Shown: positions 1 through 48,409 of the stretch, piece by piece
How positions within the stretch are numbered: the first letter of the stretch is position 1
Layout of the letters: every line of letters starts with the position of its first letter
Made by a program: the position numbers and the translations under genes
Assembly: GCA_001825035.1 (NCBI GenBank)
Contig: MHUO01000009.1
Location: 20,754-78,164 of the forward strand
Direction: 5' to 3'
Source of the DNA: Candidatus Wildermuthbacteria bacterium RIFOXYD1_FULL_50_12
GTDB taxonomy: Bacteria; Patescibacteriota; Minisyncoccia; Minisyncoccales; UBA10102
Length of the DNA: 57,411 nt
The notes under the pieces: generated by a model
Database searches by the model: none
Seen by the model: only the letters and a program-made list of their open reading frames with translations
Told to the model about the DNA's origin: nothing

Positions 1-753
1 GTGCCGTGCTTTGGTAACAACTGTGCGCAGGATTGGGAAAGTTTCGTGCTGGGCGTGAATGCCAGCGCGGCTCCCGCTGCCTATGTGCAGCCCATCGAGA
101 ACGAGAGCAAGACATTCGGCTGCGATTTGTGGGTTGAAGTGTTCAACGTGAGCTTGCCCAACGGCGGTATTCCTTGCGATGAAGATATTGATTTGATGCT
201 CGTGCTTGACCGATCTGGAAGCATCGATAGCAGCGAACTTGCTACACTGAAAACAGCCGCAAAGGCATTCGTAGATGCGCTAGTTCCTTCAGCGGATGGG
301 GTGCATATCGGAATGGTGAGCTTTTCTAGCGCAGCAACACTCGATCAAGAGCTCACTGGGGTTGGCCAGGATGTGAAAGATAAGATTGATCTTCTTAGTT
401 CGGGAGGTTTAACCAATCTTGAAGATGCACTTTTGGATGCAGCTGCAGAATTAGCGAGTGTGCGGGATCGTGACGATTCAACCGTCCCGGACTTTATCGT
501 ATTAATCACCGATGGCGCGCCAACAACCAGTAATATGGGTGGGGATCACGCGGCTAATGCAACAGCGGCCGCAACTGCTGCAAAAGCAGCTGGAATTGAA
601 ATCTTCGTTGTAGGAGTTGGTACTACAGGAAGCACAGCAACTTACCTGGAAACCAGCATCGCGAGCACCGATCCTCCAGAGCACTACTTTGACGCTGCTG
701 ATTTCGATGACTTGGAAGCAATTCTGCAGGGACTGACCGAGTGCCCGGCATAA
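1..753 (+). CDS. 5'-truncated exported protein with a Cys-rich locus-specific module followed by a von Willebrand factor A (vWA) domain
   Basis: Open at the window edge. Starts VPCFGNNCAQDW...FGCDLWVEV, the same module that ends the next two ORFs. Then DLMLVLDRSGSIDS (MIDAS DxSxS) ... VLITDGAPT, typical of vWA. Confidence 0.8.
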   Translation: MPCFGNNCAQDWESFVLGVNASAAPAAYVQPIENESKTFGCDLWVEVFNVSLPNGGIPCDEDIDLMLVLDRSGSIDSSELATLKTAAKAFVDALVPSADGVHIGMVSFSSAATLDQELTGVGQDVKDKIDLLSSGGLTNLEDALLDAAAELASVRDRDDSTVPDFIVLITDGAPTTSNMGGDHAANATAAATAAKAAGIEIFVVGVGTTGSTATYLETSIASTDPPEHYFDAADFDDLEAILQGLTECPA

Positions 754-838
754 ATTACTTGGAAACATCATTTTTTATTGATGTTATAAAAGGTCGAAAT
801 CTCATAGAGGTCGTATAACAAACCAAATTGAACAAACA

Positions 839-1621
839 ATGAAAAAGAAAATTTTCGTGGGCGCCTTGAGTTTGGTGGCAGTGGCTGGAGGCGTGGCAGG
901 ATTGTCCGCGTTTGAGGCGCACGTCATCAACGTAACCGCAAAAATCGAGAACGCATTGCAGGTTCCAACCGATCCATTGAATTTCGGAACTGTATTCCCG
1001 CAGGAAGAACTTGACCAAACGTTGCGTGTGGCACTTTCTTCGTCTTTCGCCAGCTCAACCGATGCAAACGATGTTGAGTACATCATTCGCCAAAAACCAA
1101 AATGTGGTGTCACAGAGGATGATGGAGAAACTCTCGTCGGTCCAACTTGGACAGGGCATATCGTAGCTGCCTCGGGTACCTCTGAGTATACAGTGGACTG
1201 TGACGAAGACAGGCCAGATGGAGTAGGCCCCGGCCCAACACCCGATTATTATCTTCTTCCTTCGCTTTGTGAGTATCTTTCCAAGCATCCAGATGCGAAC
1301 CCAACACCAGGGAATGATGATTCTTTGGATTCCTTCCACCAGCCCTGGACAATTAACCCCGATGGAACAATCGACTGGAATGATGTCGAAGGACGACTCG
1401 CAAAGTCTGAACAGGATCTTGAGGACACTTGGACTATCGATCTCAAAGTTCCATGCTTTGGAGATAACTGCGCGCAGGATTGGGCAGATTTCGTGACTGG
1501 AATCAATCCTGACGCAGATCCAGACGACTATGTACTTGATGAAGATCTTGAGCACAAGATTTTCGGGTGCAATCTTTGGATCGAAGTGACCGGAGTTTCC
1601 CGATTTTCTGATGAGGACTAA
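839..1621 (+). CDS. exported protein with a SipW-cognate-like signal (TasA/camelysin-like candidate), paralog 1
   Basis: MKKK plus a hydrophobic segment, then SAFEAHVINVTAKIENAL. Conserved Cys positions; C-terminal WTIDLKVPCFGDNCAQDW...FGCNLWIEV. Confidence 0.8.
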   Translation: MKKKIFVGALSLVAVAGGVAGLSAFEAHVINVTAKIENALQVPTDPLNFGTVFPQEELDQTLRVALSSSFASSTDANDVEYIIRQKPKCGVTEDDGETLVGPTWTGHIVAASGTSEYTVDCDEDRPDGVGPGPTPDYYLLPSLCEYLSKHPDANPTPGNDDSLDSFHQPWTINPDGTIDWNDVEGRLAKSEQDLEDTWTIDLKVPCFGDNCAQDWADFVTGINPDADPDDYVLDEDLEHKIFGCNLWIEVTGVSRFSDED

Positions 1622-1644
1622 ATAACGTCTAAGAGCAAGGTTGT

Positions 1645-2319
1645 ATGAAAAAGAAAATCGCGTTGGCAGGAATAGCTGTATTTGCTGCATTGGGCAGTGT
1701 GGCTGGATTGAGCGCGTTTGAAGCGTATGTGATCAACGTGACCGCGCAGATTGAAAACGCCTTGTTCGTTCACCCAGAAGCGCGGGATTTTGGCACGATG
1801 TTTCCGCAAGAATACAAAGAGCTTGGTTTCTTTGTTACCTTTTCTGAATCATTTTCAACGAGAGATCAAGACAGGGTTTCAAAGATAGACTATCAGATCA
1901 AGCAAAAGCCAAAATGCGCAGACAGCGTAACCAATCCCACGGAATTCAGCAAGGTAACGGAGGATGAGAATGGCGAATTCATCTGCCAGAATCCTGGACA
2001 CGTGATGCTGCCGTTGCTGTGCCCGTATCTGTCGAAAACCCCTGCGAATCTTGACGGAAACGATGTTGGAATTCCGGCATTCCATGATCCAGCCGCGATC
2101 GCCACAGGCACCATTAACAAACAGGCTGCTCATGTTGGCGATAACTGGACGATTGACTTGGCAGTGCCATGCTTTGAGGGGCAGTGCGCGCAGGATTGGT
2201 CTCTCTTTGTGGAAAGCCACAATCCAGACGCTGACCCAGACGAATTTATGGCAAACCCGGAAGATGAGAGCAAGGTATTCGGATGCGATCTTTGGGTGGA
2301 AGTGACAAGGATATATTGA
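1645..2319 (+). CDS. exported protein with a SipW-cognate-like signal, paralog 2
   Basis: MKKK plus a hydrophobic segment, then SAFEAYVINVTAQIENAL. Shares KQKPKC, LLCPYLSK and WTIDLAVPCFEGQCAQDW...FGCDLWVEV with the 839 ORF. Confidence 0.8.
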   Translation: MKKKIALAGIAVFAALGSVAGLSAFEAYVINVTAQIENALFVHPEARDFGTMFPQEYKELGFFVTFSESFSTRDQDRVSKIDYQIKQKPKCADSVTNPTEFSKVTEDENGEFICQNPGHVMLPLLCPYLSKTPANLDGNDVGIPAFHDPAAIATGTINKQAAHVGDNWTIDLAVPCFEGQCAQDWSLFVESHNPDADPDEFMANPEDESKVFGCDLWVEVTRIY

Positions 2320-2334
2320 TTGATTTCTGATTGA

Positions 2335-3265: not shown

Positions 3266-4984
3266 ATGAGCAGTTACAGCTACTATAAGGAAACGAAGAT
3301 CAAGGTGCGTATATCCCCACTCGACTCCGCTCAGGGCGAGCGGCAGATGGCACTTGCTTTTGCTGCACCTGCTCTCGCGAAAAAGCGGCACGCCGCGCTC
3401 GGGCAGTGGGCGCGGGGTGCACTCGTGCTGGGGTTGGCGGGTTTGGTGGTACTGGGAAGTTCCGGATCCGCAATTTTAGCTTCTGCTTTTGAAGCGCACG
3501 TGGTGAACGTAACCGCCCAGATCGAACCGAGGCCGGAAGAAGAAACCACCACCCTTACTGTTACAAAAATTGTGTGTAACGATGAATCACTTCTTCCCAA
3601 CTGGGGCAATGTGAAAGGAGAGCCGCCTATCACGAGTTCAACGGCGGCGGACTTTCTCGCGAATCTCTCTGAAGACCAGGCCGATGACTGCTGGTTGGAA
3701 GAAGGATGGTTTTTCCAGTGGGCACCAGAAGAAGTATTCAACCAGTTTCCTCCACCCCCTCCGAGCAACACCGGAGAAGCGGGCGCTCCTTGGGTTGCCT
3801 TTGGCCCCACGAATATCAGCGGAGTTGCCAGTATCGTAGTGCCTTTGGATAATATCAACCCGCGCATTTGGGTACGAGAAGTGTTCAAAGAAGGATACTT
3901 CCCATTTTCCGTGGAAGATTCTTCGGTGGATGAAGACCTGCTCGCGTTTGACGACGTGTCTGCAGAGTTTTATTGCCACCGAGACGTTATCTATTACGAC
4001 AACCTTGATTTTGTTTCTTATCCTGCAGCTGGCGAAACTTACTACTGCGTGGCGTTCAACGTAGGGGAGCGTCAAGAACAGCTAAGCAGTACGCCGCAGC
4101 AGACAGTAGTGCTCAATGAGATTTTGCCCAATCCCGAAGGAGACGATAATCAAGACGGATTGCTCGGAGAATGGGTGGAACTGTATAACTTGGGAGATTC
4201 TGCGGTGAATGTTGCTAGCTGGTATTTGGAAGATGATTCTTCTTCTGGGAACCGGCAGACCATTTCCGACAGCAACACGCATACCGGCAGTACGGTTATA
4301 GGAGCCATGGGAAGCGGAAGCGAGTGGCTTGTGGTGTTTATGGCTGGAGTCGTGTTAAACAACACCGGAGATACCGTCTCTCTCTACAACACAGCAGACG
4401 AGCTGCAGGACGAGCATATCTATGGTACGAGCGCAAATGATCAAGATAGCGATACCGATACCACGCCCGGAGAAGAAAACGAACCCGCTGATGACGACGA
4501 TGCGGGCAATGAAGGCAAATCCGTAGCGCGTATTCCAGACGGTGCTGGTGATTGGTTTGATCCTGTGCCCACGCCCGGGGGCCCGAACAAGCTGGAGGAT
4601 TTTGGAGAAGAAGATTCTTCTGGTACATCAGATGGGTCTGGTGGTGGTTCGCCACCTCCTCCAGACGAAGAAGGGCACTCTTCTCTTGCGGAAGTCGATG
4701 AAGAAGGAGAGCTCGAAGGGGGAGAAATGCATGAGGCCGCTGAGGAACCTGCTGAGGAAGAGGGCGAAGGAGAAGAATCAGAGGAGGAAGGGAAACTGGA
4801 AGAAGATGAAAGTGAGGAACCAACAGATGGGCTCAGCGGAGAACCTGTGGAAGATTCCAGCGAAGAGGTCATTGTGGAAGTGAACCAAGAGGAGCAAGAT
4901 GTTCAGAGTGAAGATTCAGATAGCGAGGCCGCAGAGGAAGATGGAACTCCCGAGGAAAGTGCTTCTGAGGAACCAGGGGACTAA
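3266..4984 (+). CDS. exported lamin-tail-domain (LTD) protein with a polyacidic C-terminal tail
   Basis: Hydrophobic segment then SAFEAHVVNVTAQIE. LTD signature VVLNEILPNPEGDD...EWVELYN...GDTVSLYN. The last ~170 aa are rich in E and D. Start uncertain; alternative ATG at 3347. Confidence 0.75.
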   Translation: MSSYSYYKETKIKVRISPLDSAQGERQMALAFAAPALAKKRHAALGQWARGALVLGLAGLVVLGSSGSAILASAFEAHVVNVTAQIEPRPEEETTTLTVTKIVCNDESLLPNWGNVKGEPPITSSTAADFLANLSEDQADDCWLEEGWFFQWAPEEVFNQFPPPPPSNTGEAGAPWVAFGPTNISGVASIVVPLDNINPRIWVREVFKEGYFPFSVEDSSVDEDLLAFDDVSAEFYCHRDVIYYDNLDFVSYPAAGETYYCVAFNVGERQEQLSSTPQQTVVLNEILPNPEGDDNQDGLLGEWVELYNLGDSAVNVASWYLEDDSSSGNRQTISDSNTHTGSTVIGAMGSGSEWLVVFMAGVVLNNTGDTVSLYNTADELQDEHIYGTSANDQDSDTDTTPGEENEPADDDDAGNEGKSVARIPDGAGDWFDPVPTPGGPNKLEDFGEEDSSGTSDGSGGGSPPPPDEEGHSSLAEVDEEGELEGGEMHEAAEEPAEEEGEGEESEEEGKLEEDESEEPTDGLSGEPVEDSSEEVIVEVNQEEQDVQSEDSDSEAAEEDGTPEESASEEPGD

Positions 4985-5023: not shown

Positions 5024-5788
5024 ATGAACAAAATTGATTTGAAAAAATACGTCGCGTGGAGTGCGTTCGCCGCTGTAATGGCCACAGGGATGTTTTGGGG
5101 CGGAACTTTATCTGCACAGGATTCAGAGTCCTCCGACATCCCCGAAGTTGTGGTTGGCCAGGTGGGCGGAGGCCAGGAGAATGGCGCGATGATGCAAACA
5201 GCAGAGTTGACCGAAGAGGAGAGGTTGGCGCTCCTTGCGGACATTGCGTGGCAGCTTGAGGAGGCGGAACAAGAGTTGCTTCGTTTGTCTTTAATTCTTG
5301 CGAAGATGGCTCTTGAGGAGCAGGTATTAGCGCTGGAACGGCAACTCCAGGAGCAATTGGCGGTTGAAGCGCAAGAGGTATCTGTGGAAAACCCCCCGCT
5401 GGCAGGGGCAGAAGAACTTGTTCAAGGCTCGGAGTCCGATTTGAAGGAAGAATCCGTCAGTGTTGTCGCTTTTGAGCAGGAAGAAGGTCCGCCAGTCGAC
5501 GGTGAAGAAGAGAGCGAAGATGAAAGAGGTTTTCTTGCTGCGCTCGGTCCTTTGGGCAATTTGGGAACGCCCGAGCTTTCTGCTCTTGGCATCCTTGTTT
5601 TCCTCGCCGCGTTTATTCTGATACGGCGAGTGCGCGCGCGCAAAGAGCGTTCCGGTTTTGTGAAGAGCGCGCCGCCTGCGGTGCCTCAGGTTCCCTCTTC
5701 GCAGCCCTCCGTTCAGCAGCCCCAATCCCAACAGGGAACGCTGCAGGAGCGCAGGGAAGATCTGAAGGATAGAGTTGCTTGGGAGTAG
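5024..5788 (+). CDS. hypothetical secreted or membrane protein with an acidic coiled-coil and a C-proximal TM
   Basis: Signal-like N-terminus, an E/L/Q-rich helical region, then TM LSALGILVFLAAFILI followed by RRVRARK. Confidence 0.6.
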   Translation: MNKIDLKKYVAWSAFAAVMATGMFWGGTLSAQDSESSDIPEVVVGQVGGGQENGAMMQTAELTEEERLALLADIAWQLEEAEQELLRLSLILAKMALEEQVLALERQLQEQLAVEAQEVSVENPPLAGAEELVQGSESDLKEESVSVVAFEQEEGPPVDGEEESEDERGFLAALGPLGNLGTPELSALGILVFLAAFILIRRVRARKERSGFVKSAPPAVPQVPSSQPSVQQPQSQQGTLQERREDLKDRVAWE

Positions 5789-5803
5789 CCCTCTTGGTAT
5801 ACT
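5775..5803 (+). promoter_or_regulatory. candidate sigma70-type promoter for hup
   Basis: TTGCTT, 17-nt spacer, TGgTATACT (extended -10), about 60 nt upstream of the HU start. Confidence 0.4.
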
Positions 5804-31089: not shown

Positions 31090-31833
31090 ATGGCTGAAGT
31101 GAAGCTGTCAGTGGTGATTCCGGCGTATAACGAAGAAAAGCGGCTGCCAAAAACCCTGCGTGCCGCGCATGATTACCTGAGCAGACAGGGGTATGCATAC
31201 GAGATTTTAGTGGTGTCGGACGGCTCCAAGGACCGGACGCGCGAGGTGGTGGAGGAAATGACCAAGGAAATACCGCATCTCCGTGTGATGGGCGAACAGG
31301 AAAATCATGGAAAGGGGTATTCGGTGCGCCAAGGAATGCTGGCTGCTCAAGGCGAGTTTCGGCTCTTTATGGACGCGGACAACGCCACGAGCGTGGATCA
31401 GGTGGAAAAAATGTGGCCGGAATTGGCAAGGGGATACGAGGTGATAATTGGTTCGCGCGACATTGCTGGAGCGAATATCGCAGTTCCCCAGCCCTGGTGG
31501 CGGAGAAGGTTGGGAGATGTGTTTAACCTTATCGTGCAGATTTTGTCTGGCTTGTGGGGAATATGGGATACACAGTGCGGCTTTAAGGGATTCTCGGCCA
31601 AAGCCGCGGAAGGTATTTTCTCGCGCGCCGTCGTTAACGCGTGGGCGTTTGACGTGGAAGTGTTAGTCATCGCAAAAAAACTCGGATATGCTATCAGGGA
31701 AGTGCCGGTTAGGTGGATGAATGACCCCAGCAGCAAAGTAAAGTTTTCCGGCATGGCAAAAATGCTTTTGGAGGTTTTGCAGATAAGCATACATAATCTT
31801 ATAGGGAAGTATAATATTTCCAGGATAGTATAA
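31090..31833 (+). CDS. family 2 glycosyltransferase (polyprenyl-phosphate sugar transferase-like)
   Basis: SVVIPAYNEEKRL...VVSDGSKDRT...FMDADN. Confidence 0.85.
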   Translation: MAEVKLSVVIPAYNEEKRLPKTLRAAHDYLSRQGYAYEILVVSDGSKDRTREVVEEMTKEIPHLRVMGEQENHGKGYSVRQGMLAAQGEFRLFMDADNATSVDQVEKMWPELARGYEVIIGSRDIAGANIAVPQPWWRRRLGDVFNLIVQILSGLWGIWDTQCGFKGFSAKAAEGIFSRAVVNAWAFDVEVLVIAKKLGYAIREVPVRWMNDPSSKVKFSGMAKMLLEVLQISIHNLIGKYNISRIV

Positions 31834-31896
31834 TTTTGTTCGCGCTTAACCCCTCCTTCGGAGTGGACCCTCGCGTCCCACAAAATTACACTATCC
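31823..31896 (+). repeat. extended hairpin element with a conserved core, copy E1
   Basis: Arms GGATAGTATAATTTTGT / ACAAAATTACACTATCC flank the core TCGCGCTTAACCCCTCCTTCGGAGTGGACCCTCGCGTC. The 5' arm overlaps the GT2 stop codon. Confidence 0.75.
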
Positions 31897-38714: not shown

Positions 38715-38724
38715 ACAAACGCTC

Positions 38725-38797
38725 GCATTACGACTTTTTCTTGCGCTTTACCCCTCCTTCGGAGTGGACCCTCGCGTCTGCGAAAAAGTCGTAATGC
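38725..38797 (+). repeat. extended hairpin element with a conserved core, copy E2
   Basis: Arms GCATTACGACTTTTT / AAAAAGTCGTAATGC (15 bp) flank the core TTGCGCTTTACCCCTCCTTCGGAGTGGACCCTCGCGTC. Starts 10 nt after the alaS stop. Confidence 0.75.
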
Positions 38798-38838
38798 TCG
38801 CTTTGTATTCAAAGGTATTTGATGTACAATACATCTAT

Positions 38839-39975
38839 ATGAGTTTTGAGTTTTTGCGTTGGGCGCGGGAAGAGCGCAAAAATTTTTTGGTGGTGCGCAT
38901 AGGGCAAAGGGAAATTGATTTTTTGCTATTCGGAAAAGAAAACGGCGAAATGCACGTTCTCGCGTACGGGAGCGAGGAAATTTCGCATTTTACCGCGCTC
39001 CAAACATTGGAAAGAATCTTTGCTCGGATTCCGCACAAAACATCCGTGCAAGAACTCATCGCCACATTTGACACGAGCTCTTTTCGGGCGCAGTCCATTA
39101 AACTTATTCTTCCTCCTCAATCGCCTCCTCACCGCATTGATAAGGCAGAGGCGTTTGCTTTGGAGCGGGATACGCGTACGCGCGCAGAACGCATATTTCA
39201 AAATCTGCTCTTTAAAGAGTCCGGCATTTTGCCGAGTGAGTTTTCTTTGCGGAAGATGGATATTCTTGAGCGGAGAATAGACGGATACGCCGTCCCCCGC
39301 CTCGAGGGTTTCAAGGGCGGCGAAATTGAGTTTTCCGTGTTAGTTATGTTTTTGCTGGAGACCGCGCTTAGCCAAGTGGAGAAGTTTGCGAAAGCACGTA
39401 AAATCTCCCGCGTGCGGGTAATACATATTGCAGAAGCTCTGAAGGTCTTCACGAGCAAGCCCGGGCGGGAAGGCGTCTATCTTTGCATGGAAGAAGAAAA
39501 AACCCGGGTTGCGGTTCACAATGAGGGCCACTTCCTGTTTTTGGGTGCGCTGCCCATGGGCGCGCATCATTTTGCAGAATTTTTCAGCGACGTGATAGGA
39601 ATGCGTGAGCCCAGCGCGCGCCTGCTGCAGCAGCGTTATTTTGAGGGCACTCTTTCTGAGGAGGTGCGGGAAAAGGTGCACAAGTATCTGTTGCCTGAAA
39701 CGCGTAAATTTGGTACATTACTCAGGGAAAAACTTTTGGAAGCGAAAACTGCCTTGCCCGAATCCGTATGGATATTCGGAAGAGGAGGCGTCCTCCGAGA
39801 CCTGCAGGACGTGTTTAGCGACGATATGCTGAGAGATCTTCCGTTTGTCCAGAGGCCCAAAACGAGATTTCTGCTCCCCAAGGATGTTTGGGAGGCAGGG
39901 CATTTTCCTGGGACGCAGGATTCCCTGTACACCGAGCTTTGTCTTATAGGCGCTTTCGTGTTGAATCGCGAATGA
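38839..39975 (+). CDS. FtsA/PilM-like actin-fold protein (tentative)
   Basis: 378 aa. The pattern of beta-rich N-terminus, VYLCMEEEKTRVAV, LPMGAHHF and IFGRGGV resembles FtsA/PilM ATPase-fold motifs. ATG 38839 chosen because the element E2 lies upstream. Confidence 0.45.
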   Translation: MSFEFLRWAREERKNFLVVRIGQREIDFLLFGKENGEMHVLAYGSEEISHFTALQTLERIFARIPHKTSVQELIATFDTSSFRAQSIKLILPPQSPPHRIDKAEAFALERDTRTRAERIFQNLLFKESGILPSEFSLRKMDILERRIDGYAVPRLEGFKGGEIEFSVLVMFLLETALSQVEKFAKARKISRVRVIHIAEALKVFTSKPGREGVYLCMEEEKTRVAVHNEGHFLFLGALPMGAHHFAEFFSDVIGMREPSARLLQQRYFEGTLSEEVREKVHKYLLPETRKFGTLLREKLLEAKTALPESVWIFGRGGVLRDLQDVFSDDMLRDLPFVQRPKTRFLLPKDVWEAGHFPGTQDSLYTELCLIGAFVLNRE

Positions 39976-41255
39976 AAAAACGGCTTATAGATATTTATCC
40001 GCCTCATGACGGCCCCCCAGCGTTTTCAGAGGGAGAAGCGCTTTTTGATGATGAGGGAAGGATTTCAAATGCGACAGGTTCTGCCGCGCGCCCGGCGGCG
40101 GGCAGATTTGCCGGCATTTTGGTCCTTTTGGCAATTCTTTTGATGGTTTTGCCATTTGTGCTTCATATCTTTTTTGTGCGCGCCTCTGTGCAGGCCTGGC
40201 CCCATATCACCAAGCTTCACGTGACAGAACAGCTGGTCGCGCAAATTGGGCAAGACAGCGTGAACTTGGAAAAGAGGATTATCCGGGCTCGCGCGTTCCA
40301 GGAGGATGCCGAACAAACTCTGCTTTTCCCCTCGTCGGGTACAAAATTCAAGGAGGAGAAGGCGCGTGGAACTATTCGGGTATACAACGAAAACACCGCA
40401 AGCCCGCAGGCGCTCGTAGCAAACACGCGATTTATCTCAGAGGACGGAAAAATATTCCGGCTTGAAGCATCTGCTTCCATTCCCGCAGCCCGTATGGACG
40501 GCAGACGTCTCGTGCCCGGATCTCTTGATCTCCAGGTACTGGCCTCAGAGCCGGGAGAAGAGTACAACATTGGAGCTTCCAAATTTTCCCTTCCGGGCTT
40601 GGTCGGATCTCCTCTGTACACAAAAATCTATGGAGAATCGCTGGGACCTATGGCTGGCGGCATGCGGAGAACCGTGTCTGTGACGACGGAAGAAGATATA
40701 GAAGAGGCGCGCGCCCAGCTCACTGAAACGCTCAAGGCGCAGGCAACGAAATCCCTGCTGGCGAAAGTTCCTCCTCAATTTCAGATGCTTGCCGATTCCG
40801 TGAACACCCTCCTTATGGAGGACAACTCTTTAGTAAAGCCGGGAGCGGAGCTGGAACAGTTTAATTATACTGCGAAAATGCGTGTTTCCATGATCGGATT
40901 TCATAGGGAAGACGCCGACTTGCTTGCGCGCCGCCTGCTCTTTGCGCAACTGGGGGATATCTACGCTCTCAATGAGAAAACGCTCCGGACTACCTATTCT
41001 ATGCGGGGAGAAATGGCAGAGACCGGTGCCCTGCCCCTTGAGGTTCAGATAAGCGTAGATAGATACGAAAAGGTTGACAAGGCGGGCTTGGCAAACCGCT
41101 TGAAGGGCGCTTCAGAAAGCCAATTCGGTCAGTTACTGGGGGAATACCCATTTTTGGCGAAAGCAAAGATTTCCCTATGGCCTTTTTGGATTTCCCGCAT
41201 GCCTCCCGATTCTGAAAGGATAACTATTGAGGTGCTTTTGGAGGGCTCGCCCTGA
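39972..41255 (+). CDS. hypothetical membrane-anchored protein
   Basis: ATGA overlap with the preceding gene. TM FAGILVLLAILLMVLPFVL followed by a large extracytoplasmic beta-rich region. Confidence 0.7.
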   Translation: MKKRLIDIYPPHDGPPAFSEGEALFDDEGRISNATGSAARPAAGRFAGILVLLAILLMVLPFVLHIFFVRASVQAWPHITKLHVTEQLVAQIGQDSVNLEKRIIRARAFQEDAEQTLLFPSSGTKFKEEKARGTIRVYNENTASPQALVANTRFISEDGKIFRLEASASIPAARMDGRRLVPGSLDLQVLASEPGEEYNIGASKFSLPGLVGSPLYTKIYGESLGPMAGGMRRTVSVTTEEDIEEARAQLTETLKAQATKSLLAKVPPQFQMLADSVNTLLMEDNSLVKPGAELEQFNYTAKMRVSMIGFHREDADLLARRLLFAQLGDIYALNEKTLRTTYSMRGEMAETGALPLEVQISVDRYEKVDKAGLANRLKGASESQFGQLLGEYPFLAKAKISLWPFWISRMPPDSERITIEVLLEGSP

Positions 41256-41689: not shown

Positions 41690-42079
41690 ATGCCGCGGCT
41701 TGTAGGAGTAGCCATTCCCGACAATAAGCAAATTGGTGTCTCTCTTACCTATATTTACGGGATAGGGCTTTCTTTGAGTCGCAAAATTTTGCGGGAGGCG
41801 GGGGTGGACGAAACGCGAAAGGCCTCTAGCATAACGCCCGATGAGCTGAATAAAATAAAAGAAATTATTGAAAAAAACTACCGAACCGAAGGTGAATTGC
41901 GGCGAGAGATAATGATGAACGTTCGAAGGTTGCGCGATATTGGTTCGTGGCGGGGAAGCAGACATGCGAGGCACCTGCCCGTAAGAGGCCAGCGAACGCG
42001 CACAAATTCGCGAACCATCCGCGGGAACGTGCGGAAAACCGTAACTTCGGGCAGAAAGCCGCCGGCAACGCCAACCTAA
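41690..42079 (+). CDS. rpsM: 30S ribosomal protein S13
   Basis: MPRLVGVAIPDNKQIGVSLTYIYGIG...GSWRGSRH..HLPVRGQRTRTN. Confidence 0.95.
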   Translation: MPRLVGVAIPDNKQIGVSLTYIYGIGLSLSRKILREAGVDETRKASSITPDELNKIKEIIEKNYRTEGELRREIMMNVRRLRDIGSWRGSRHARHLPVRGQRTRTNSRTIRGNVRKTVTSGRKPPATPT

Positions 42080-42166
42080 TATGGGTCCCGTACGAAATTC
42101 CCTGGGTCAAAGGGTATTTCCACGGGTAATAGAAAAAGATAACAAACGAAATTTCGTACGGGATGG
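42080..42166 (+). repeat. ~85-nt inverted-repeat element, copy L1, between rpsM and rpsK
   Basis: 13-bp perfect arms TCCCGTACGAAAT (42086) and ATTTCGTACGGGA (42151). The 3' arm ends on the A of the rpsK ATG. Homologous copy at 47050-47135. Confidence 0.8.
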
Positions 42167-42606
42167 GGAAAAAACGCATTATACAAAAAGGAGAAGTGGG
42201 AACGGCAGAAGGGGGCGCGGATGCCGTGGCAAAGGCCGCTCGGGTCAGCTCTTCAAGGCGGGTGCCCGAAGGCCGGGTGTACGTGTATTCTTCCTACAAT
42301 AATACCTTAATGTCGCTTTGCGACGCGAAAGGCAATCTATTGGCGCAGGTTTCAGCTGGCGCAATCGGGTTTAAGGGCACGAAAAAATCCACCCCGTTTG
42401 CCGCCTCCAAGGTCGCAGACGCCCTCTCGCAAATTGCCAAGAACAGAGGCGTAGAAAAAGTTGAGATTTTCATTAAAGGAGTCGGGTCGGGCAGAGATTC
42501 TGCCTTGCGGGCATTGGGCTCAAAGGGCTTTGAAGTATCTGCAATCCGGGATATCACCCCGATTCCTCATAACGGTCCTCGTTCGAGAAAAGTGCGCAGA
42601 GTGTAA
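42163..42606 (+). CDS. rpsK: 30S ribosomal protein S11
   Basis: GRVYVYSSYNNTLMSLCDAKGN...GFKGTKKSTPFAA...ITPIPHNGPRSRKVRRV. Confidence 0.95.
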   Translation: MGKKRIIQKGEVGTAEGGADAVAKAARVSSSRRVPEGRVYVYSSYNNTLMSLCDAKGNLLAQVSAGAIGFKGTKKSTPFAASKVADALSQIAKNRGVEKVEIFIKGVGSGRDSALRALGSKGFEVSAIRDITPIPHNGPRSRKVRRV

Positions 42607-45166: not shown

Positions 45167-45182
45167 CTACGAGTATCGCTCG

Positions 45183-45253
45183 CATCGCGGATTTTCCTCG
45201 CGCTTAACCCCTCCTTCGGAGTGGACCCTCGCGTCTTCGGAAAACCCGCGATG
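45183..45253. repeat. extended hairpin element with a conserved core, copy E3
   Basis: Arms CATCGCGGATTTTCC / GGAAAACCCGCGATG flank the core TCGCGCTTAACCCCTCCTTCGGAGTGGACCCTCGCGTC. Lies between convergent rpsI and the PEGA-domain gene. Confidence 0.75.
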
Positions 45254-46948: not shown

Positions 46949-46982
46949 AGGCGCCTGGATCGCGTACGCGATCCAGGCGCCT
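46949..46982 (+). terminator. 34-nt perfect palindrome after the 46209 gene
   Basis: AGGCGCCTGGATCGCGTACGCGATCCAGGCGCCT, followed by a T-rich tract (CTTTTCTGCGGCTTTTT). Confidence 0.55.
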
Positions 46983-47008: not shown

Positions 47009-47037
47009 TTGCCAAGTCGGATTTTTTCAGATACAAT
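47009..47037 (+). promoter_or_regulatory. candidate promoter of murA
   Basis: TTGCCA, 17-nt spacer, TACAAT. This places element L2 in the murA 5' UTR. Confidence 0.5.
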
Positions 47038-47049
47038 ACAGAGGACTCA

Positions 47050-47135
47050 ATATGGTCCCGTACGAAATCCCGAGGTACAAGGGCATTTCTATCGGGAGTA
47101 AGAGAAGATAACAAGCGAAATTTCGTACGGGATGG
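47050..47135 (+). repeat. ~85-nt inverted-repeat element, copy L2, upstream of murA
   Basis: Same 13-bp arms at 47056 and 47120. The 3' arm ends on the A of the murA ATG. Confidence 0.8.
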
Positions 47136-48409
47136 AGCAATTTATTATTCGCGGGGGAAAACCCTTGCGAGGCATGATAGACGTGAGGGGGGCGAAAAAC
47201 GCCGCCTTTCCTCTTTTGGCAGCAACCATCTTGACCAAAGAAGATTGCGTCATCGAAAATCTGCCCTTGATTGAAGATGTGTTCCGGGCGATTGAAATTC
47301 TGGAAAGCATGAAAGCGGAAGTTAACTGGATAGGGGAGCGCGCAGTCAAAATCAACACCAAACGTCTCAACCCCGTCCTCATTGACAAAAAACTCGTGGG
47401 AAAACTCCGGGGTTCCGTTTTATTTTTCGGGCCGCTTCTCGCGCGCTTTGGAAAGGTTTTCCTTCCGGTCCCTGGCGGGTGTATCATTGGTGCGCGGCCG
47501 ATAGACACGCACCTCGACGCTTTTTTGCAGTTGGGCATAAAAATAAAGGGGGGGAAGAAGGGTTTCGTCCTGGAATTGCCAAAAGCCATAAGGGTCCGGG
47601 AAGTGATTCTCAATGAATTTTCCGTCACGGCAACGGAAAATATCCTTCTCCTGGCGAGCTTATTGCCCATTCCCATTACGATAAAAACCGCGGACCAAGA
47701 TTACCAGATTCAGGAACTCTTTAAATTTCTCAAGCGAATGGGCGCGCAGCTACGAACTTCCAATCTCCACGTGATTTCAGTGAAGGGGAAACCGCGCCTC
47801 AAAGGCGCGCGCACGAAGCTGATTTATGATCCCATTGAAGCAGGGACTTTTCTTGTGATGATTGCGGCTACAAAGGGAGAAGCGCTCGTGAGAAACGTGG
47901 AGGTTCAGTATCTTGAGCTGTTCCTTAAAAGATTGCGCGATTTTGGCGTGCCCTTCCGCATTATCCCGCGCGCAAAGGGAAGGGGAGACGTGCGCGTTTT
48001 TCCCTGGAAGTCCCTGCGTATGGATAAAATTCAGAGTTTTATTTACCCGGGTATTCATTCTGATTTGCAAAGCGCGCTTGGCGTACTTGCGACCCAATCC
48101 AGAGGTTCAACGCTCCTGCACGATCCTCTATACGAGGGCCGCTTGAAATATTTGGAGGAGTTGAATAAGATGGGAGCTGAAATCTACATTGCAGACCCCC
48201 ACCGAGCCATCATCAATGGACCCACTCAACTTTACGGAACCGATCTTGGAACATTTGATTTGCGCGGCGGGGCGGCATTGATCATTGCCGCGTTAGCTGC
48301 AAAAGGGAAGAGTACGATAAGCAATATTTATCAGGTGGACAGAGGGTATGAAAGGATAGAAGAGCGCCTGCAGAAATTGGGCGCAGACATTAGGAGAGTG
48401 AATTCATAA
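47132..48409 (+). CDS. murA: UDP-N-acetylglucosamine 1-carboxyvinyltransferase
   Basis: GAKNAAFPLLAATIL...GGCIIGARPID.H...RGYERIEERL..LGA. Confidence 0.93.
   Translation: MEQFIIRGGKPLRGMIDVRGAKNAAFPLLAATILTKEDCVIENLPLIEDVFRAIEILESMKAEVNWIGERAVKINTKRLNPVLIDKKLVGKLRGSVLFFGPLLARFGKVFLPVPGGCIIGARPIDTHLDAFLQLGIKIKGGKKGFVLELPKAIRVREVILNEFSVTATENILLLASLLPIPITIKTADQDYQIQELFKFLKRMGAQLRTSNLHVISVKGKPRLKGARTKLIYDPIEAGTFLVMIAATKGEALVRNVEVQYLELFLKRLRDFGVPFRIIPRAKGRGDVRVFPWKSLRMDKIQSFIYPGIHSDLQSALGVLATQSRGSTLLHDPLYEGRLKYLEELNKMGAEIYIADPHRAIINGPTQLYGTDLGTFDLRGGAALIIAALAAKGKSTISNIYQVDRGYERIEERLQKLGADIRRVNS

Follow-up and report, generated by a model that had tools for sequence, protein, structure and literature searches.

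The Correia elements of Neisseria (CREE/NEMIS) are 100–155 bp long, carry ~26-bp repeats with a TA duplication and lie anywhere in intergenic DNA, in both orientations. The RPE of Rickettsia sit in frame inside open reading frames (ORFs) and are translated, and the MIRU of mycobacteria are direct repeats between operon genes, with small ORFs that keep the coupling. Transposons of the piggyBac/IS1380 type have a 4–5 bp T..A duplication (the piggyBac target is TTAA), 13-bp CCC repeats and precise excision. Here, we describe an inverted-repeat element that occurs twice, at the start codons of rpsK and murA, in a 57,411-nucleotide (nt) stretch of the genome of Candidatus Wildermuthbacteria bacterium RIFOXYD1_FULL_50_12 (contig MHUO01000009.1, positions 20,754 to 78,164; the whole stretch is called the window hereafter). 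The element is inserted between the first and second bases of the start codon, and its terminal A, together with a TGNN target duplication, rebuilds the ATG and keeps the reading frame. [quoted passage not shown]

How does the element compare with the described systems? Like the Correia elements, it is a short, non-coding, multicopy sequence with inverted repeats and a target duplication, of the kind that is often co-transcribed and forms an mRNA hairpin affecting expression; unlike them, it sits inside the start codon, supplies the A of the ATG, has a fixed orientation and is flanked by a TGNA duplication. With RPE and MIRU it shares the tolerance of a small repeat at a coding-sensitive position, but it splits and rebuilds a start codon, and MIRU have no terminal inverted repeats. 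The likeness to piggyBac/IS1380 concerns the ends only (the 4-bp T..A duplication, 13-bp repeats with CCC preceded by T, and an asymmetric internal end repeat). The REP/REPIN sequences with RAYT and the derivatives of IS200/IS605 are likewise hairpin-forming repeats of ~80–100 nt with conserved arms and variable loops, but they have no target duplication, insert beside a fixed tetra- or pentanucleotide and lie mostly after genes, whereas a variable 4-bp duplication flanks our element. Bistable leader RNAs (riboswitch platforms and RNA thermometers) also set access to the start codon by exclusive pairings; our element differs in having no ligand pocket and no Rfam family, in being mobile and in its unrelated genes. 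Finally, the mobile bypass inserts, namely the T4 gene 60 insert with its relatives (bioRxiv 10.1101/2022.08.31.505936) and the mitochondrial 'byps' of Magnusiomyces, are mobile, lie in genes, have a repeated codon at their flanks and are tolerated through RNA behavior on the ribosome; they lie inside ORFs and use a nascent peptide and a take-off stop, whereas the element is at the initiation codon, where bypass is not needed and where the codon after the old ATG is NNU and no stop. In none of these known systems is a start codon split and rebuilt by an insert of fixed orientation.

The element resembles a MITE in being short and non-coding, with shared inverted repeats, a variable duplication of fixed length, empty sites and many dispersed copies. 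A riboswitch or ribosomal-protein leader would be ancestral and bound to one functional class, whereas the genes concerned here are unrelated and close relatives have empty sites. Rfam gave no match at E ≤ 10 in the window region or at E ≤ 1 in seven loci spanning all subfamilies, and full-text literature searches turned up no description of such an element in the candidate phyla radiation (CPR; Patescibacteria) or elsewhere, the one text match to a 12-mer being a Burkholderia paper on c-di-GMP; insertion into a start codon with rebuilding of the ATG appears to be undescribed.

The first-pass annotation of the window had proposed two inverted-repeat copies on the rpsK and murA starts, with 13-bp arms whose last A is the A of the ATG, and direct reading bears this out. 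Copy 1 (42086–42163, 78 nt, at the rpsK start) and copy 2 (47056–47132, 77 nt, at the murA start) belong to the same subfamily, C, and have a mean column identity of 83% over 136 aligned columns, flanks included. The exact 13-nt arm is found in the window on the + strand at 42086 and 47056, and its complement at 42151–42163 and 47120–47132, with no other sites. A42163, the end of the 3′ arm of copy 1, is the A of the rpsK ATG (ORF 42163–42606, Pfam Ribosomal_S11), and A47132, the end of the 3′ arm of copy 2, is that of murA (ORF 47132–48409, EPSP_synthase fold in Pfam); the same two starts were chosen by gene calls on identical public contigs. Read directly, neither copy has a GGAGG-type Shine–Dalgarno (SD) motif between the element interior and the ATG, as had been claimed. 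An extra, leftover ATG (ATG#1) stands ahead of each copy, at 42081 and 47052, the former 1 nt past the rpsM stop TAA (42077–42079). The flanking direct repeat was also seen correctly: its left copy is ATGGG at 42081–42085 and ATGG at 47052–47055, the left duplication at murA (TGG) being one base shorter than expected. The features are as follows, the decoy being an internal degenerate copy of the 3′ arm.

42081–42085, + strand: left remnant of the rpsK start, ATG#1 (42081–42083) with the left duplication TGGG (42082–42085); relatives L056–L063 read ...cctaatATGGGGAAAAAAC, element-free.
42086–42163, + strand: element copy 1, 78 nt; identical in relatives with 98–99% S11 identity, missing at ≤93% identity.
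42086–42098, + strand: 5′ arm (terminal inverted repeat) of copy 1, TCCCGTACGAAAT, from the exact arm search.
42100–42126, + strand: CCC/GGG helix (42100–42102 with 42112–42114) and decoy ATTTC-CA-CGGG (42116–42126) of copy 1, as predicted from folding and subfamily-C comparison.
42127–42150, + strand: A-rich tail of copy 1, TAATAGAAAAAGATAACAAACGAA, unpaired in both predicted folds.
42151–42163, + strand: 3′ arm of copy 1, ATTTCGTACGGGA; its final A opens the working rpsK ATG, 42163–42165 (sequence and Pfam ORF).
42164–42167, + strand: right duplication TGGG, bases 2–5 of rpsK (sequence and relatives).
47009–47037, + strand: murA promoter-like site TTGCCA-17-TACAAT, 14 nt before ATG#1 (sequence).
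47052–47055, + strand: left remnant of the murA start, ATG#1 (47052–47054) with the left duplication TGG (47053–47055); relatives L060–L063 read ATGGAGCAATT, element-free.
47056–47132, + strand: element copy 2, with 5′ arm 47056–47068, helix 47069–47071 with 47081–47083, decoy ATTTC-TAT-CGGGA 47085–47097, A-rich tail 47098–47119 and 3′ arm 47120–47132 (arm search, alignment and folding).
47132–47136, + strand: working murA ATG (47132–47134, its A from the element) and right duplication TGGA (47133–47136) (sequence, Pfam ORF and relatives).

In the window, murA has its own terminator–promoter pair: a terminator-like 15-bp hairpin (46949–46982) precedes the promoter-like site, and since TACAAT ends 14 nt ahead of the old ATG, the leader would be only ~8 nt long. 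The center of that hairpin is the palindrome CGTACG, which is also present in the element arms, probably by coincidence.

Are these copies insertions? The window sequence recurs identically in JGI and ENA assemblies and in the NCBI metagenome-assembled genomes (MAGs) GCA_001823425.1 and GCA_001823475.1 (groundwater CPR bacterium), and contigs with 98–99% S11 identity hold the identical rpsK element. In contigs with an S11 identity of 93, 92, 81 and 78%, the junction is ...gccaacctaatATGGGGAAAAAAC: the rpsM stop is followed after one base by the rpsK start (rpsM-TAA-T-ATGGGGAAA) and the element is absent; the window junction reads ...cctaatA(TGGG){element}(TGGG)GAAAAAAC. The murA start is likewise element-free in the 81% and 78% relatives (ATGGAGCAATT), and in the window it is ATGG{element}TGGAGCAATT. 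The empty junctions TAAT-ATGGGGAAA and ATGGAGCAA, which the first-pass annotation had predicted, are exactly those carried by the relatives. The window copies bear the marks of transposition with a 4-bp target duplication (TGGG at rpsK; TGG left at murA). For most copies a 4-bp duplication cannot be separated from a 5-bp one that counts the A; L023 and L041 favor 4 bp, for their left flank is GTGAA and their right flank ATGAA, so that the working ATG takes its A from the element and TGNN alone is the duplication.

The element appears to interfere with gene calling. In GCA_001823425.1 and GCA_001823475.1 (L242 6001–6381 and L243 5858–6238), the NCBI annotation places the S11 start 63 nt downstream of the ATG that the element completes, so that S11 has 126 aa rather than 147. 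L242, which has a run of N at 5783–5796, is without a called S13 gene.

The wider search for copies that had been called for was made by scanning one genome per species, for 185,579 species, for two perfect arms 40–70 nt apart. The two-arm pattern was found, far beyond chance, at 53 loci in 37 assemblies, all of them Patescibacteria or unclassified MAGs of that type, and with the same flank rule as in the window. The lineages are Nomurabacteria, Paceibacterota, and Wildermuth-, Niyogi- and Spechtbacterales; as far as the scan shows, the family is confined to Patescibacteria. One MAG, MFVS01, accounts for 10 of the 53 loci and holds 13 copies, a count that takes in the imperfect-arm and mini copies of the flanks. 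Together with the window copies and one further short perfect-arm copy in L006, the scan set gives 57 perfect-arm copies.

In 53 of these 57 copies, the terminal A begins an ATG from which an ORF runs for 73–703 codons or off the end of the locus, and almost all copies follow an ATGNN identical to the five bases with which the ORF opens. The NN varies with the gene (AA, GA, CA, TA, AG, TT, GG), and the target duplications are TGAA, TGGA, TGCA, TGTA, TGAG and TGGG, with TTTA, TAGA and TTGA at non-start sites. The last duplicated base is A at 46 of 52 sites, compared with 150 of 346 control starts (43%; p = 4e-10). With the non-ATG sites included, the target consensus is T-N-N-A, the G at position 2 being specific to start-codon copies. 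The exceptions to the placement are L018 and L024, at non-ATG targets (TTTA and TAGA), L047, 9 nt upstream of a start, and L017, 11 nt ahead of a partial second copy with variant arms. Copies placed at random, or an ancestral leader without the duplication, would have spoken against a start-codon MITE with a 4-bp duplication; neither was seen, and that proposal has strong support, with empty sites, a variable duplication and a high copy number on its side.

The second copy in L017 (4445–4560) is a mini or partial variant that follows the element, with the left arm TCCCGTTAGTAAT and its near-complement TACCCTAACGGG directly after; it has its own ATGAA on the left, apparently through successive insertions before one gene. 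L024 holds a mini element (1732–1767) with perfect arms just 10 nt apart. The short L006 element (3659–3722, 64 nt) lies where the valS stop overlaps the start of the next gene (TGATG); it and the window copy at rpsM/rpsK, with its 1-nt spacer, occupy coupled junctions, and the pilT/pilC junction in L011 holds a copy as well.

Most elements are 77–80 nt long, with variants of 64–120 nt, and they have no coding capacity beyond short, variable upstream ORFs (uORFs). After orienting the copies by gene, we recognized three interior subfamilies, A (~20 copies), B (~21) and C (6, both window copies included); no reversed member occurs in any of them, and all oriented copies face one way relative to the gene. 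Variant families with other, still mutually complementary arms (TCCCGTTAGAAAT, TCCCGTTAGAAGT) and forms of 101–120 nt follow the same rule. The uORFs that begin at the old ATG run for 6–30 codons with varying stop positions, apart from one of 73 codons and one in-frame case of 212 codons. A conserved uORF was rejected as the defining feature, as no peptide is shared beyond M-x-P-V-R-N, which the arm itself forces. An N-terminal extension through the element was rejected too, being open and in frame in L009 only.

One site, in the gene of a 151–155 aa membrane protein (not Pfam-checked), was sampled at 80 loci, picked from a metagenome scan with protein alignment regardless of the element. About 70 loci were empty and 5 were filled, representing 4 distinct sequences. 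The empty loci show the promoter TTGATTT-N17-TATATT-N8-ATGAATA. One filled locus, L080, bears the variant-arm family at the same nucleotide and therefore records an independent insertion there. The filled alleles lie scattered over the protein tree, each with empty alleles as its nearest relatives, and an ancient insertion inherited clade-wide was rejected on these grounds. In L070, L090 and L107, another palindromic element (arms CCCGGTTAGTAGATTTTCGCAA...) lies ~100 nt upstream of the membrane-protein start, where it interrupts the promoter's -10 box, TATA being repeated to its left and right.

The same site may also hold different subfamilies in different lineages (L039, subfamily A, versus L040, subfamily B; L012 versus L035). 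Four-fold degenerate sites of the host genes have reached saturation (identity 0.25–0.45, chance 0.27), while elements at the same site are 58–92% identical. Within one subfamily, same-site pairs are no closer (0.75) than different-site pairs (0.73), so site-specific lineages, as in homing, were rejected as a general rule, though L026 and L068 are 91% identical. These comparisons suggest that the family stays near its consensus across very distant hosts and has been gained repeatedly at start codons. Precise loss is probably easy, as direct repeats flanking a palindrome would favor it.

Do the genes hit form a regulon? Their names, mostly read from translations (S11 and MurA are from Pfam), include metK, rplB, rplI, frr, greA, pheT, dnaG, pnp, murJ, murG, recR, purN, purC, gdh, hsp20, a response regulator and small membrane proteins, besides rpsK and murA. 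More than 30 unrelated gene families are involved, housekeeping genes with no functional theme, and the element-bearing genes are not a regulon.

What many of the sites do have in common is an upstream signal, a -35 box TTGAyT and an (extended) -10 box ending 6–8 nt before the A of the leftover ATG, which is the layout of a leaderless gene. A -10-like hexamer (TAnnnT with ≥4/6 matches to TATAAT, ending 4–10 nt upstream) was found at 28 of 42 element genes, compared with 114 of 346 long control ORFs from these loci, a crude control in that the first ATG of each ORF was taken, and 11% of random ATGs. SD-like motifs, on the other hand, occur at 0 of 42 element genes, 7% of controls and 7.7% of random ATGs; as the control rate equals the random rate, these organisms make no visible use of SD. 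Most element genes look leaderless, and the element favors, without being restricted to, leaderless-type starts. Across the CPR loci L001–L053, about one third of first ATGs have a -10-like box 4–10 nt upstream, which suggests that initiation in these lineages is largely SD-independent and often leaderless.

Signs of selection on RNA structure are clearest in subfamily A, where a 6-bp hairpin abuts the 3′ arm and five of its six pairs are changed on both sides. Over the outer stem and inner hairpin, 99.1% of cells are paired and six pairs are changed on both sides, which 0 of 500 shuffles reach. The 11 wobble cells, which are not independent and reflect an estimated ~six events, all read U.G or G.U when taken on the sense strand, and A.C or C.A, the wobble of the opposite strand, does not occur. 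Among the arms, those of L068 (from the 80-locus sample, with a 91% identical interior in L026) carry a compensatory change from C-G to U-A relative to consensus, those of L129 have one U.G pair, and a flank copy in L030 (7748) has a G.U pair plus a compensated change from A-U to G-C. The alignments of subfamilies B and C, from which the abutting hairpin is missing, demonstrate no covariation. These results show that structure is constrained on the sense strand.

A second fold emerges when the transcript ends before the 3′ arm, as the 5′ arm is then predicted to pair with the decoy. In the window this fold, UCCCG..GAAAU(CCC...GGG)AUUUC..CGGG(A), has a predicted energy of −17.2 kcal/mol for the rpsK copy and −16.7 kcal/mol for the other. 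The decoy partner is GUUUCGUAUAAGGGA in subfamily B and only CGGGA in subfamily A, and the decoy block is kept in four of five subfamily-C copies. Pairing of the decoy helix reaches 95.7% in subfamily A, with 9 wobble cells, and 84.9% in subfamily B, compared with 29–54% once the partners are slid; this last comparison is generous, as the structure was taken from a member of the alignment. Truncated sense transcripts (n = 54) have a mean minimum free energy of −10.9 kcal/mol with 0.58 of the arm paired, compared with −5.4 kcal/mol and 0.34 for the antisense (Wilcoxon p ~1e-8), and by predicted folding the decoy captures the 5′ arm in the sense orientation only. In the full-length RNA, on the other hand, the arm–arm stem is favored by 11.8 ± 3.9 kcal/mol on average, and by 10.2 and 6.3 kcal/mol in the window. 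This closed stem has 13 bp, or 14 bp reaching the U of the working AUG if the last duplicated base is A (88% of sites) or G (rpsK). The modeling thus predicts two mutually exclusive folds, a closed one with the A and U of the AUG paired and an open one with the AUG in an A-rich single strand.

The first-pass annotation had also drawn an inner helix that co-varies between the window copies (CCCTGG/CCA(c)GGG versus CCCGAG/CT(at)CGGG). That helix needs 1–3 nt bulges, rests on two sequences and is less regular than the decoy pairing; pairing of its CGGG block with the 5′ arm, together with the CCC/GGG helix, is at least as good across five subfamily-C copies. The broader idea of a folded RNA at the start codon gains from the covariation and the sense-only wobble, but pairing takes in no more of the AUG than its A and U, and better-supported pairings exist than the helix proposed. 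The MITE and RNA readings, which had been posed as alternatives, each hold in part and are not exclusive.

How might a gene work with such an insert in its start codon? In our model, the element would be transcribed within the mRNA, always in one orientation. In the closed fold, the arm stem would loop out the insert and place the rebuilt AUG where the old AUG stood relative to the upstream signal, whether this is a leaderless mRNA's 5′ end, a short leader or, in coupled genes, the upstream stop codon. In the open fold, the decoy, being transcribed before the 3′ arm, would capture the 5′ arm and leave ~36 nt of A-rich RNA and the AUG free. Translation would start at the rebuilt AUG mainly from this open, kinetically first fold, and the closed, more stable fold would limit or time access to the AUG. 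Only the orientation with the decoy on the promoter side would be compatible with expression: in a reversed element the AUG-proximal arm would be paired in both folds, which offers a selection-based reason for the orientation rule. The start-codon bias would then reflect a T..A target preference combined with selection, other insertions being lost or those at start codons favored. An element-borne promoter firing at the rebuilt ATG is not supported: the best candidate for a -10-like hexamer (TAGAAT/TGAAAT) stops 11 nt short of the A, and covariation turns the inner hairpin into poor -10 boxes.

If this reading is true, the element is a transposon built for life inside start codons, whose terminal base and duplication regenerate the ATG so that the gene still works, and it has found a new niche for mobile DNA in very compact genomes. 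It would also be a natural, portable two-state 5′ RNA module for study. The family bears on translation initiation in CPR bacteria, with their many leaderless-type starts and absence of an SD signal; it appears to mislead gene callers, and it is a possible marker for strain-level population genetics of CPR bacteria.

Several points weigh against this reading of a start-codon MITE with a bistable RNA. A transposase with the same terminal repeats, which the first-pass annotation had suggested looking for, did not turn up: the window, 146 CPR loci (0.93 Mb) and viral contigs yielded no transposase and no long element with these ends, and the mechanism of transposition is accordingly unproven. Arm pairs 200–5000 nt apart were only neighboring small copies and chance matches with 3 mismatches, the 20 window ORFs contained no transposase domain (Pfam), and none of the 95 matches to an arm 14-mer in viral contigs, a number that fits chance, had a partner arm. 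Since the genome scan demanded perfect arms, arm conservation is partly a matter of ascertainment and the start-codon bias is inflated; among flank pairs with ≤2 mismatches per arm, one of four (the L024 mini copy) had perfect arms. A T..A target occurs about once per eight positions, so random insertion plus tolerance predicts mostly intergenic copies, and the observed 53 start-codon copies against 4 others are the opposite of what a T..A target plus selection would lead one to expect; that account needs targeting or positive selection on top. The excess needs one of three things, machinery directed to initiation sites, positive selection or much faster loss elsewhere. The uORF from the old rpsK ATG runs out of frame for 73 codons into rpsK, which is awkward if the old ATG is used. 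The sense-only wobble could stem from a strand-specific single-stranded DNA intermediate, and the decoy could be a subterminal transposase-binding repeat and not an RNA device.

A further, joint reading, which we put forward as tentative, is a mobile translational switch that is actively sent to start codons or strongly favored at them: either the integration machinery reads a feature of the initiation site, or a trans-acting factor binds the element, which would be a portable bistable 5′ regulator. In leaderless genes that feature could be the open promoter complex, as 67% of the sites have a -10 box 6–8 nt upstream; in the other case, CPR bacteria would have recruited the element for one control over dozens of housekeeping genes. 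Either would be a transposon–host relationship of a kind not described in bacteria.

Could the element be purely selfish, its RNA without a role? Start codons would then be the sole harmless sites in compact genomes, from which imprecise deletion cannot remove it, and the arms would be conserved since the copies are young and the transposase needs them. The target duplications, almost all of them intact, do suggest young copies, and the filled alleles scattered among empty ones, the equal identity of same-site and different-site copies, and the retention of the gene in L022 and L038 after the left ATG had decayed all suit this explanation. We nevertheless think it unlikely, as the orientation bias is absolute though the ends are symmetric, wobble is confined to the sense strand, the inner hairpin covaries, the arms of L068 have changed in a compensatory way in situ and sense and antisense fold very differently; a T..A target should, moreover, give far more intergenic copies than 4 of 57. 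A mobile translational operator, which we regard as more doubtful still, would add a ligand: the arms and GGA blocks (CGGGA in the decoy and ACGGGAUG at the start) would be bound by a small RNA or by an RNA-binding protein, CsrA-like or other, so that many housekeeping genes would be switched at once, and transposition would spread the control. In its favor, the arm sequence is unchanged in hosts saturated at four-fold degenerate sites, two GGA-containing blocks lie tens of nt apart in all three subfamilies, and positive selection would account for the start-codon excess. The 3′ arm with the start, GUACGGGAUG, also resembles the CsrA consensus from systematic evolution of ligands by exponential enrichment, RUACARGGAUGU, a lead and not a test. 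Yet the genes hit have no functional theme, and recognition by a transposase explains the arm conservation equally well.

Two explanations look to the behavior of the mRNA itself. A ribosome might engage the old site (a 5′-terminal AUG, a short leader or an upstream stop) and shunt or hop over the closed hairpin to the rebuilt AUG without opening it, for which the split ribosome-binding site of T4 gene 38, the shunt of cauliflower mosaic virus and T4 gene 60 are precedents. Most copies do keep the old ATG, 5 nt before the stem, overlapping or 1-nt-spaced genes put the upstream stop at the stem foot (rpsM/rpsK; valS in L006), and stem pairing has been selected (L068; the covariation in subfamily A). 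We consider a shunt improbable, though, as the old ATG is dispensable in L022 and L038, the take-off site has no stop or conserved peptide, and the uORF lengths look random. The hairpin might instead be cut, for example by RNase III, which cuts the Correia elements of Neisseria, to yield a downstream product that is a leaderless, or nearly leaderless, new mRNA. Stacking of the 13-bp stem on the abutting 6-bp hairpin could give ~20 bp in subfamily A, and CPR bacteria retain RNase III and RNase J (PMC12641178). Processing of this kind seems a shade less credible even than a shunt, as a 5′ AUG would need a cut at the very base of the helix and subfamilies B and C have no abutting hairpin. An ancestral structured leader common to rpsK and murA, with no insertion at all, would explain the similarity of the two copies and nothing more; the empty sites at both genes in the nearest relatives refute it, as does the occurrence of the family at more than 30 unrelated genes, and we give it practically no weight.

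A second repeat family is present in the window at 31819–31895, 38720–38796 and 45177–45253. It has a conserved 40-nt core, GCGCTT(A/T)ACCCCTCCTTCGGAGTGGACCCTCGCGTC, with an anti-SD-like CCUCC and no Rfam match, and its flanking inverted repeats of 16–23 nt are different in each copy. The right arm takes in the ATG of the following gene at 38794 and pairs it with a CAT of the left arm; the copy at 45177 lies between two convergent genes.

The ORFs 38794–39975 and 39972–41255 are conserved genes (393 and 427 aa) in which no Pfam domain passes the threshold; they lie between alaS and infA, the usual place of ribosomal-operon neighbors, and are syntenic in L056, L060 and L062. At the start of the window (1–2320), where ORF 839–1621 is without a Pfam match, three paralogous ORF segments share a DNA block encoding ...CFGxNCAQDW....

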